Shown here: positions 5,241 to 6,539 of the stretch, piece after piece
Position numbering within the stretch: position 1 is the stretch's first letter
How the letters are laid out: each line of letters starts with the position of its first letter
Assembly (NCBI GenBank): GCA_000004695.1
Contig: CH709153.1
Location: forward strand, 1-12,018
DNA from: Dictyostelium discoideum
Taxonomy: Eukaryota
Direction: 5' to 3'
Length of the DNA stretch: 12,018 nucleotides
Notes under the pieces: generated by a model
Database searches by the model: none
What the model saw: the letters and a program-made list of their open reading frames with translations, nothing else
Told to the model about the DNA's origin: nothing
Position numbers and translations under genes: made by a program

Positions 5241-6539
5241 TCAGTGTAAGTTGGTGGTGGTGAATCTGGTTCTTGTTGTGGGAGTTGTTGTGTTGTTGTT
5301 GTTGTTGTTGTGGTAGTTGTTTTGTGTTGTTGTGGTAGTTGTTTTGTGTTGTGGTTCTTGTTGTTGTTGTTGTTGTTCTTGTGGTTGTTGTTGTTGTTGT
5401 TGTTGTTGTTGTTGTTGTTGTTGTTGTTGTTGTTGTTGTTGTTGTTGTTGTTGTTGTTGTTCTTGTGGTTGTTGTTGTTGTTGTTCTTGTGGTGGTTGTT
5501 GTTGTTGTTCTTGTTGTTGTTCTTTTGGTGGTTGTTTTTTAATTTTTGGTTTTAATAATGATGTTAAATCTGGTTGTGGTTCTTGTGGTGGTTTTGGTTG
5601 TTGTGGTGGTTTTGGTAGTTGTGGTTGTGGTTTTTGTGGTTGTGGTTTTGGTAGTTGTGGTTGTGGTTTTGGTGGTGGTGGTAGTTGTTGTGATGGTGGT
5701 GGTGGTTGTACTTGTGTGTTGTTGTTGTTGTGTTGTGGTTGTTGTTGTTGTTGTTGTTGTTGTTGTTGTTGTTGTTGTTGTTGTTGTTGTTGTTGTTGTT
5801 GTTGTTGTTGTTGTTGTTGTTGTTGTTGTTGTTGTTGTGGTTGTATGAGATAATTTAAAGATTCAGTAATTTTTATGAAATGAGATTCGATGGTTTTATG
5901 TAACACGACCTGATTTTGATTGATTGTATTTAATGTGTTGTTTAATTTTGAAATAGTTTTAGTGATTTCAGCAGAAAATTTTGTACTATCTCTTTGCATT
6001 TCAATTAAGGTATTAATGTTTGAATCAATTTGTTTATCGGAAGAAATTTCAGAAATATTCATTTGGTTGGAAAAATTTCTGGATTCACGAATAATGCTGT
6101 TGTTAGAATCATCATTGTTAAACGTTGAACTATTATTATTTATTGAACGAGTATTAAAAAAATTTGAATTTGTATTACTATATGGTTCAGTTGGATAATC
6201 GAGTATTTTATCGTCTAATGTAATTCTATTTTGTAAGTTAAATATATTATGTTCTTTATTTACTCCAAATAAATAATTTTGAAAACTAAAAACTATATTG
6301 TTGTCTTTAAATTCATCTTCTTTTAATTCTTCTTTAATTTTGAAATTTAAATTATAATTTTTATACAAATTTTTATTAATTTCATTTTGAACCGTAATAC
6401 ACGTTTCATAATAACACATAAATGTATCGTAAATAATAATATAATTATTTGTTTCAAGAAAACTATATGAATTATTTTTTTCTATTAAATTGCTACCAAA
6501 CAAATAAATTGAGTTATTATTATTAATTATAGTCTTTTT
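5241..6539 (-). CDS. segment C of the minus-strand locus. An N-terminal globular part, then a long poly-Gln/Pro-rich low-complexity region (Q34, PPPPSQQLPPPPKPQPQLPKPQPQ.., Q28), ending ..TTTNLH*.
   Basis: Track ORF 5241..6503. The frame opens at 6539 directly after the segment B stop, overlapping an A7/T7 homopolymer. The (TTG)n on the + strand is (CAA)n on the minus strand, the dictyostelid poly-Q codon. Confidence 0.55.
   Translation of the reverse strand, partial: KKTIINNNNSIYLFGSNLIEKNNSYSFLETNNYIIIYDTFMCYYETCITVQNEINKNLYKNYNLNFKIKEELKEDEFKDNNIVFSFQNYLFGVNKEHNIFNLQNRITLDDKILDYPTEPYSNTNSNFFNTRSINNNSSTFNNDDSNNSIIRESRNFSNQMNISEISSDKQIDSNINTLIEMQRDSTKFSAEITKTISKLNNTLNTINQNQVVLHKTIESHFIKITESLNYLIQPQQQQQQQQQQQQQQQQQQQQQQQQQQQQQQQQQPQHNNNNTQVQPPPPSQQLPPPPKPQPQLPKPQPQKPQPQLPKPPQQPKPPQEPQPDLTSLLKPKIKKQPPKEQQQEQQQQPPQEQQQQQPQEQQQQQQQQQQQQQQQQQQQQQQQQQPQEQQQQQQEPQHKTTTTTTQNNYHNNNNNNTTTPTTRTRFTTTNLH
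5262..5850. repeat. (TTG)n/(TGG)n on the + strand, equal to the (CAA)n/(CCA)n coding repeat on the minus strand. Includes an exact 22-bp tandem duplication (5309-5330 = 5331-5352).
   Basis: Direct reading. All three minus-strand frames are open across it (Q / T / N), which produces the five spurious + strand track ORFs 5310..5853. Confidence 0.9.

Follow-up and report, generated by a model that had tools for sequence, protein, structure and literature searches.

Non-processed (unitary or decaying) pseudogenes consist of long formerly coding segments which are split by frameshifts, a nonsense codon and small deletions and which have lost their start, and these features are all found in the Dictyostelium discoideum AX4 locus analysed here, of which a second copy bears different lesions. 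The locus differs from such pseudogenes in that no intact parent or functional paralogue was found, the protein libraries searched containing two loci only, and in that the public annotation treats a part of it as a live gene. Frameshifts caused by short tandem duplications arising through slippage are a second related system. The likeness lies in exact head-to-tail copies of 22 nt with a 6-nt partial third copy, the unit length being non-triplet and the surrounding tract being repeat-rich, whereas here the event and the un-duplicated allele are reconstructed rather than observed. Programmed +1 frameshift sites of the antizyme/RF2 type share with the locus a stop codon followed by an open +1 frame; in our case, however, the switch in coding signal precedes the stop and falls on the duplication, the +1 frame is closed after 19 codons, the site is not conserved and the gene is otherwise presumably dead. 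Dictyostelium poly-Gln proteins encoded by (CAA)n have the same long CAA-encoded Gln runs, in which variation in triplet units keeps the frame, whereas the tract described here contains a non-triplet duplication and its gene is disabled.

The window, i.e. the whole stretch of DNA analysed, is a complete unplaced contig of 12,018 bp from D. discoideum AX4 with a GC content of ~20%, containing (CAA)n, (AAT)n and long A/T runs. The minus strand shows five long open segments, A to E, between 8204 and 4199 (Table 1), the poly-Gln/Pro tract of segment C comprising (CAA)33 at 5837-5739 and (CAA)25 at 5459-5385. In an exhaustive protein search against 1.8 billion representatives the concatenated minus-strand segments retrieved two proteins only, i.e. 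XP_628797 (DDB_G0294194, Q54AU9) of D. discoideum AX4, which is carried by the window contig itself, and KAM9943664.1, the product of a locus on contig JBTAPE010000037.1 of the second D. discoideum assembly GCA_054883475.1. This locus, L001, aligns with window positions 927-11175 with 94-99% identity. No homologues beyond these two loci were detected among the 1.8 billion representatives or in the 90% clusters. An earlier protein search using a concatenated query of 1018 aa gave zero matches, probably being swamped by low-complexity words, and the unique part of segment C as protein query also gave zero matches. None of the segments and none of the reconstructed proteins has a Pfam match above thresholds; the PDB sequence search revealed no relative, the best match being a RING finger on the Cys-rich C-terminus with E = 0.58, and the AlphaFold single-sequence model of segment E is unusable (pLDDT 35). 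Our literature search found nothing naming DDB_G0294194 or the second assembly.

Table 1. Coordinates of the minus-strand segments, of the lesions separating them and of the public gene model in the window. Frames are given as the position of the first codon base modulo 3.
Feature	Coordinates	Strand	Description
Segment A	7212..8204	-	331 codons; first codon base = 2 mod 3; ~99% identical to L001
Segment B	6530..7189	-	220 codons; frame mod 1
Segment C	5244..6539	-	432 codons; frame mod 2; contains the poly-Gln/Pro tract
Third-frame coding remnant	5190..5308	-	frame mod 1; reads TTTTTTQQLPQQEPDSPPPTYTDYIDNINKNGNSHDFKMY; from codon log-odds
Segment D	4861..5184	-	frame mod 0; the frame itself is open 5538..4861
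Segment E	4199..4860	-	frame mod 1; Cys-rich C-terminus; stop TGA 4201-4199; frame open 4963..4202
5' truncation junction	8195..8196	-	window lacks ~234 nt found at L001 9963-10196
A8 run	7226..7233	-	one A too many, frame A to B; L001 has A9 and a private 7-nt deletion nearby
TAA nonsense codon	7190..7192	-	frame B; AAA (Lys) in L001
A7 run	6535..6541	-	A8 or A5 would join B to C; L001 has A6, likewise out of frame
22-bp tandem duplication	5303..5352	-	2.27 copies: 5352-5331, 5330-5309, partial 5308-5303; net +1, mod 2 to mod 1
Stop TGA	5241..5243	-	ends frame C; out of frame, reached only through the duplication
T5 run, followed by A4	5185..5189	-	most likely the second +1 lesion, mod 1 to segment D; region absent from L001
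13-nt deletion site	4861..4862	-	L001 has TAATGTCAACACT and D reads straight into E: ..LNYLNYNVNTLIRTLKYS..
Public model DDB_G0294194 / XP_628797	4199..5217	-	exons 5217..4968 and 4887..4199; prediction on the 3' remnant

The break at the end of segment C is genuine and has its cause in the 22-bp tandem duplication. A first-pass annotation of this DNA had described the minus-strand frame as ending in a stop after the repeat, which is borne out with a frame open from 6539 to 5244 and a TGA at 5243-5241, and had noted an exact 22-bp duplication, the copies 5309-5330 and 5331-5352 indeed being identical and the match extending by 6 nt. On the coding strand the duplicated unit is ACAACACAAAACAACTACCACA, and the 6-nt partial third copy at 5308-5303 constitutes a microhomology at the unit boundary. 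A match of 28 nt at a lag of 22 was equalled in none of 2000 global and in none of 2000 block-local codon shuffles of the tract. The same annotation had assigned the causative indel to another place in the repeat and had regarded the position of the shift as unobservable. Both statements have to be revised, as the phase of the CAA/GAA/CCA triplets pins the shift to 5352-5290: these triplets keep to phase 2, i.e. to frame C, throughout all 30-nt bins between 5860 and 5351, with an in-frame AAC run at 5740-5711 as the sole excursion, whereas phase 1 is found from 5290 to 5254. The interval 5352-5290, to which the frame switch is confined, is the tandem duplication, and the duplication is the only place at which the codon phase changes.

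Since 22 equals 1 modulo 3, removal of one copy makes frame C continue in the third frame (mod 1), which then reads ...QQLPQQEPDSPPPTYTDYIDNINKNG... (also given as ...QEPQHKTTTTTTTTTTQQLPQQEPDSPPPTYTDYIDNINKNGNSHDFKMY). The joined frame is favoured by codon usage as well: using a codon log-odds score, trained on the unambiguous parts of the gene and also run in sliding windows, the stretch 5290-5190 gives +31.3 bits for the third frame compared to -41.3 bits for frame C and -30.4 bits for frame D. The frame-C tail (...TQNNYHNNNNNNTTTPTTRTRFTTTNLH followed by the stop) with its TGA at 5243 results from the duplication and is not a designed terminus. An 8-nt tandem repeat at 5299-5284 was also considered as the lesion, because 8 equals 2 modulo 3 and its removal would join C to the D frame. 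It was rejected, since it does not exceed chance level, approximately half of the shuffles containing a complete tandem copy with a non-triplet lag between 7 and 60 nt, and since its removal leaves 5290-5190 to be read in a frame scoring -30 bits. No copy retaining the tract in a form free of the duplication was found, L001 being the only other copy and lacking window positions 6071-5043; the state preceding the duplication, presumably with a single 22-bp copy, is for this reason derived from internal evidence.

The earlier observation that deleting one copy does not restore the frame of segment D is correct, the result being mod 1 and segment D being mod 0; the wrong conclusion drawn from it, namely that the duplication is not causative, is explained by a second lesion located further downstream. 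Overlooked were the presence of two lesions between C and D and the state of the whole gene, which is multiply disabled and has no start codon. Other statements on the repeat stand in part only. All three frames are open in each CAA block but not in the tract as a whole, in which the third frame is interrupted by stops at 5566 and 5554, and the segment D frame, described as running through the whole repeat, is open through the downstream CAA block but closed by a TAA at 5541-5539 and open only to 5538. A miscount of repeat units, to which such a tract was said to be prone, fails as an explanation because miscounting triplet units cannot alter the frame.

The third frame is itself closed by a TAA at 5185, and the score of frame D is positive from ~5150, so that a second step is needed to enter segment D. 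If one T is omitted from the T5 run at 5189-5185, reading continues ...HDFKMYFKSYRSNNYKIVKSGLNDINLDY..., and the un-duplicated, T-corrected single-frame reading across the region would be ...EPQHKTTTT..QQLPQQEPDSPPPTYTDYIDNINKNGNSHDFKMYFKSYRSNNYK.... As alternatives, introns with GT..AG borders would join the third frame to D in phase, either 5214..5145 (70 nt; AG at 5146/5145) or 5214..5124 (91 nt; AG at 5125/5124). The candidate intron 5214..5145 has a GC content of 23% compared to 3% in the one convincing intron of this gene. A 1-nt lesion near the T5 run is most likely, and we prefer it with reasonable confidence over an intron.

The remaining breaks were interpreted by comparison with L001, which reveals these to be mutations and not introns. 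The ~234 nt by which the window is truncated at the 5' end comprise in L001 the ATG, exon 1 with a length of 29 nt, an intron of 67 nt (GTAATT...TTTTAG, 3% GC) and the first ~37 codons of exon 2, and segment A has no in-frame ATG except for its last codon. In-phase GT..AG introns had been fitted to all of these junctions at first, i.e. 7236..7140 or 7225..7189 between A and B, 6621..6482 between B and C and 4967..4888 between D and E; these models were dropped because L001 shows indels or a nonsense codon at these places. As the 13 extra nt in L001 join D and E, the window carries a 13-nt deletion at this site. L001 has private lesions of its own: 7 nt are deleted at window 7256 and single nucleotides at 7690 and 5027, and a 1029-nt deletion removes window 6071-5043 including the whole poly-Gln/Pro tract. 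The 1029-nt gap (L001 12306-12313 = window 6079..5043) is bounded by an 8-nt direct-repeat microhomology, AAATTTTT. In L001, a 1-nt deletion 24 nt past this gap restores the frame, two stops aside.

Six edits applied to 8204..4199, i.e. removal of one A at 7233-7226, T7192A, addition of one A at 6541-6535, removal of 22 nt, removal of one T at 5189-5185 and addition of 13 nt at 4862, result in one open reading frame of 1331 codons ending with the TGA at 4201-4199. Adding the 5' exons of L001, the ancestral protein has a length of ~1,375 residues. The break at the end of the repeat does not represent a recoding signal; about seven lesions disable the gene, and the break is just one among them. 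Taken together, it is highly probable that 8204..4199 of the minus strand is the remnant of one orphan D. discoideum gene, now being a pseudogene broken by the duplication and by other lesions.

This supports a model according to which the ancestral gene would have been almost intronless, encoding an N-terminal region, a coiled-coil-like part, the poly-Gln/Pro tract, a PPPTY motif and a Cys-rich C-terminus. The 22-nt unit was then duplicated in tandem, the probable mechanism being slippage during replication at the ACAACA microhomologies on either side. This added 1 nt modulo 3 and put frame C out of frame for ~30 codons up to the accidental TGA at 5243-5241, the real coding information going on in the third frame to ~5190. 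A second insertion of 1 nt, most likely in the T5 run, would lead into the segment D frame, the exact site being the probable one rather than an observed one. Further decay comprises the loss of the start codon together with ~234 nt, the nonsense mutation at 7192, two poly-A indels and the 13-nt deletion between D and E. Translation across the break would not be required in such a course of events. Indel rates in D. discoideum are far above base-substitution rates (PMC7466956).

An intact AX4 gene, with the duplication and the run lengths being sequencing or assembly artefacts of a low-coverage unplaced contig, is improbable in our view. The contig has no assigned place in the genome and measures only 12 kb, and three of the six lesions are located in homopolymer runs (A8, A7 and T5), so some of them could be sequencing errors; however, the nonsense codon at 7192, the 13-nt deletion, the ~234-nt 5' loss and the exact 22-bp duplication are atypical of read errors, and the neighbouring gene shows a similar pattern with deletions of 11 nt and 13 nt. 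L001 is moreover out of frame at both poly-A sites and has disabling lesions of its own, and this brokenness of the second copy argues for real decay. We infer the lesions to be genomic mutations rather than sequencing errors. A little less probable still are two separate genes, the first ending at TGA 5243 and the second, DDB_G0294194, starting at ATG 5217 and having its own promoter. The public annotation contains exactly this second-gene model, whose CDS (5217..4968 + 4887..4199) translates exactly into XP_628797, and the ATG is found 23 nt past the stop, but the third-frame coding signal spans the supposed intergenic gap, the first ~25 codons of the model score about zero and the upstream gene would have no start codon. 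The only intron of the model (4967..4888, 80 nt) has 26% GC, which is above the exons, and its donor GTAAGT at 4967 is ATAATT in L001; since the 13 nt present in addition in L001 join the frames without an intron, this annotated intron is an artefact bridging the frameshift left by the 13-nt deletion. The first-pass annotation had likewise held 5216..4199 to be unlikely as an independent gene, and the comparison of the two assemblies agrees with this.

Removal of the C/D break by an intron is very unlikely. The donor at 5214 with either acceptor does join the third frame to D, though this concerns the second step only. The coding strand lacks a GT between 5711 and 5214, as had been noted before for 5241 to about 5700, meaning that frame C cannot be spliced past its stop, which confirms that splicing does not explain the break; the GC content of the candidate, given above, is far from that of the real intron of the gene, and the other apparent introns of the gene proved to be indels. 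The least probable explanation is a programmed event at the ribosome, either +1 frameshifting or bypassing, where the repeat ends, e.g. at CAC TGA T. Slipping by +1 at the TGA would lead into the third frame, but the coding signal of that frame is seen as early as ~50 nt before the TGA, and after 19 codons the +1 frame is closed by the TAA at 5185, falling short of D. The gene furthermore has no start codon and carries other lesions, and its only relative, L001, lacks the site, so that conservation was not found.

The value of this result is chiefly one of annotation. DDB_G0294194 (Q54AU9), a 'hypothetical protein' in the AX4 reference, appears to be built on the 3' remnant of a pseudogene using a spurious intron, and the locus should get a new label. 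Furthermore, the phase of the repeat codons can locate a frameshift inside a coding triplet repeat, and the cause in this case is a non-triplet tandem duplication and not a miscount of repeat units. Otherwise, the locus is a further example of an orphan gene in decay, located in a repeat-rich region of a high-indel genome (PMC7466956).

The neighbourhood of the pseudogene is repeat-rich and decaying. A divergent plus-strand gene remnant at 8380-10775 (+) is distributed over five frames and encodes an N-terminal signal-like peptide, an ectodomain rich in Cys (GSGCGSGTCGG) and, at the C-terminus, a membrane helix. In this remnant L001 has 13 nt at window 8838 and 11 nt at window 9844 which are missing from the window; a 1-nt deletion in the divergent gene is private to L001, and at least one break is common to both copies. 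Within 8885-9541 a sub-threshold Pfam match to the Phlebovirus_G2 fusion domain was obtained (E = 4e-4, 19.8 bits vs a cut-off of 22.9), and the match was not returned in a Pfam scan of the joined L001-based protein. L001 contains at 5462-7007 (-) and 21199-21805 reverse transcriptase (YLDD) and recombinase-like ORFs, which we take to be DIRS-1-like; these abut the end of the block common to the window (window 11175), and the opposite end of L001 carries a gene with RT_RNaseH Pfam matches.

The ~10-kb block common to both assemblies (927-11175) might be what is left of a mobile or virus-derived element not described before and not of ordinary host genes, a reading which we rate as improbable. 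It would comprise a divergent orphan pair, one gene encoding the ~1,375-residue poly-Gln protein with a Cys-rich, RING-like C-terminus and the second encoding a putative type I membrane glycoprotein with a faint likeness to the phlebovirus Gc fusion domain. If so, the frame breaks would record the decay of the element.

Additional repeats and an ORF were observed elsewhere in the window. A minisatellite with periods of 12, 24 and 48 nt and the consensus ATTTTAAAGGTA is present at 545-942 and is open in several frames (TFKITFKI...); similar arrays are found at L001 3387-3612 and 14120-14838, the latter within a 759-nt insertion relative to window 3296/3297. An (AAT)83 repeat at 1732-1980 has no stop in any frame, giving runs of poly-Asn, poly-Ile or poly-Leu, and around it the two assemblies differ most (93.6% identity, 24 gaps). 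The ORF at 3278-3688 (+) contains the motif ...IIHFDS...QEQLKLNNNCGFF..., which we assume to resemble the His/Asp...Gln...Cys pattern of Ulp1/C48-type cysteine proteases and regard as a lead only, and it has no Pfam match. At 2087-2155 a 19-nt tandem unit, GCAATTTATATTACGCCGG, which is relatively GC-rich, is present in 3.6 copies, and at 2878-2928 an exact 21-nt coding repeat occurs in 2.4 copies (...SSQMELPSSQMELPSSQ...).
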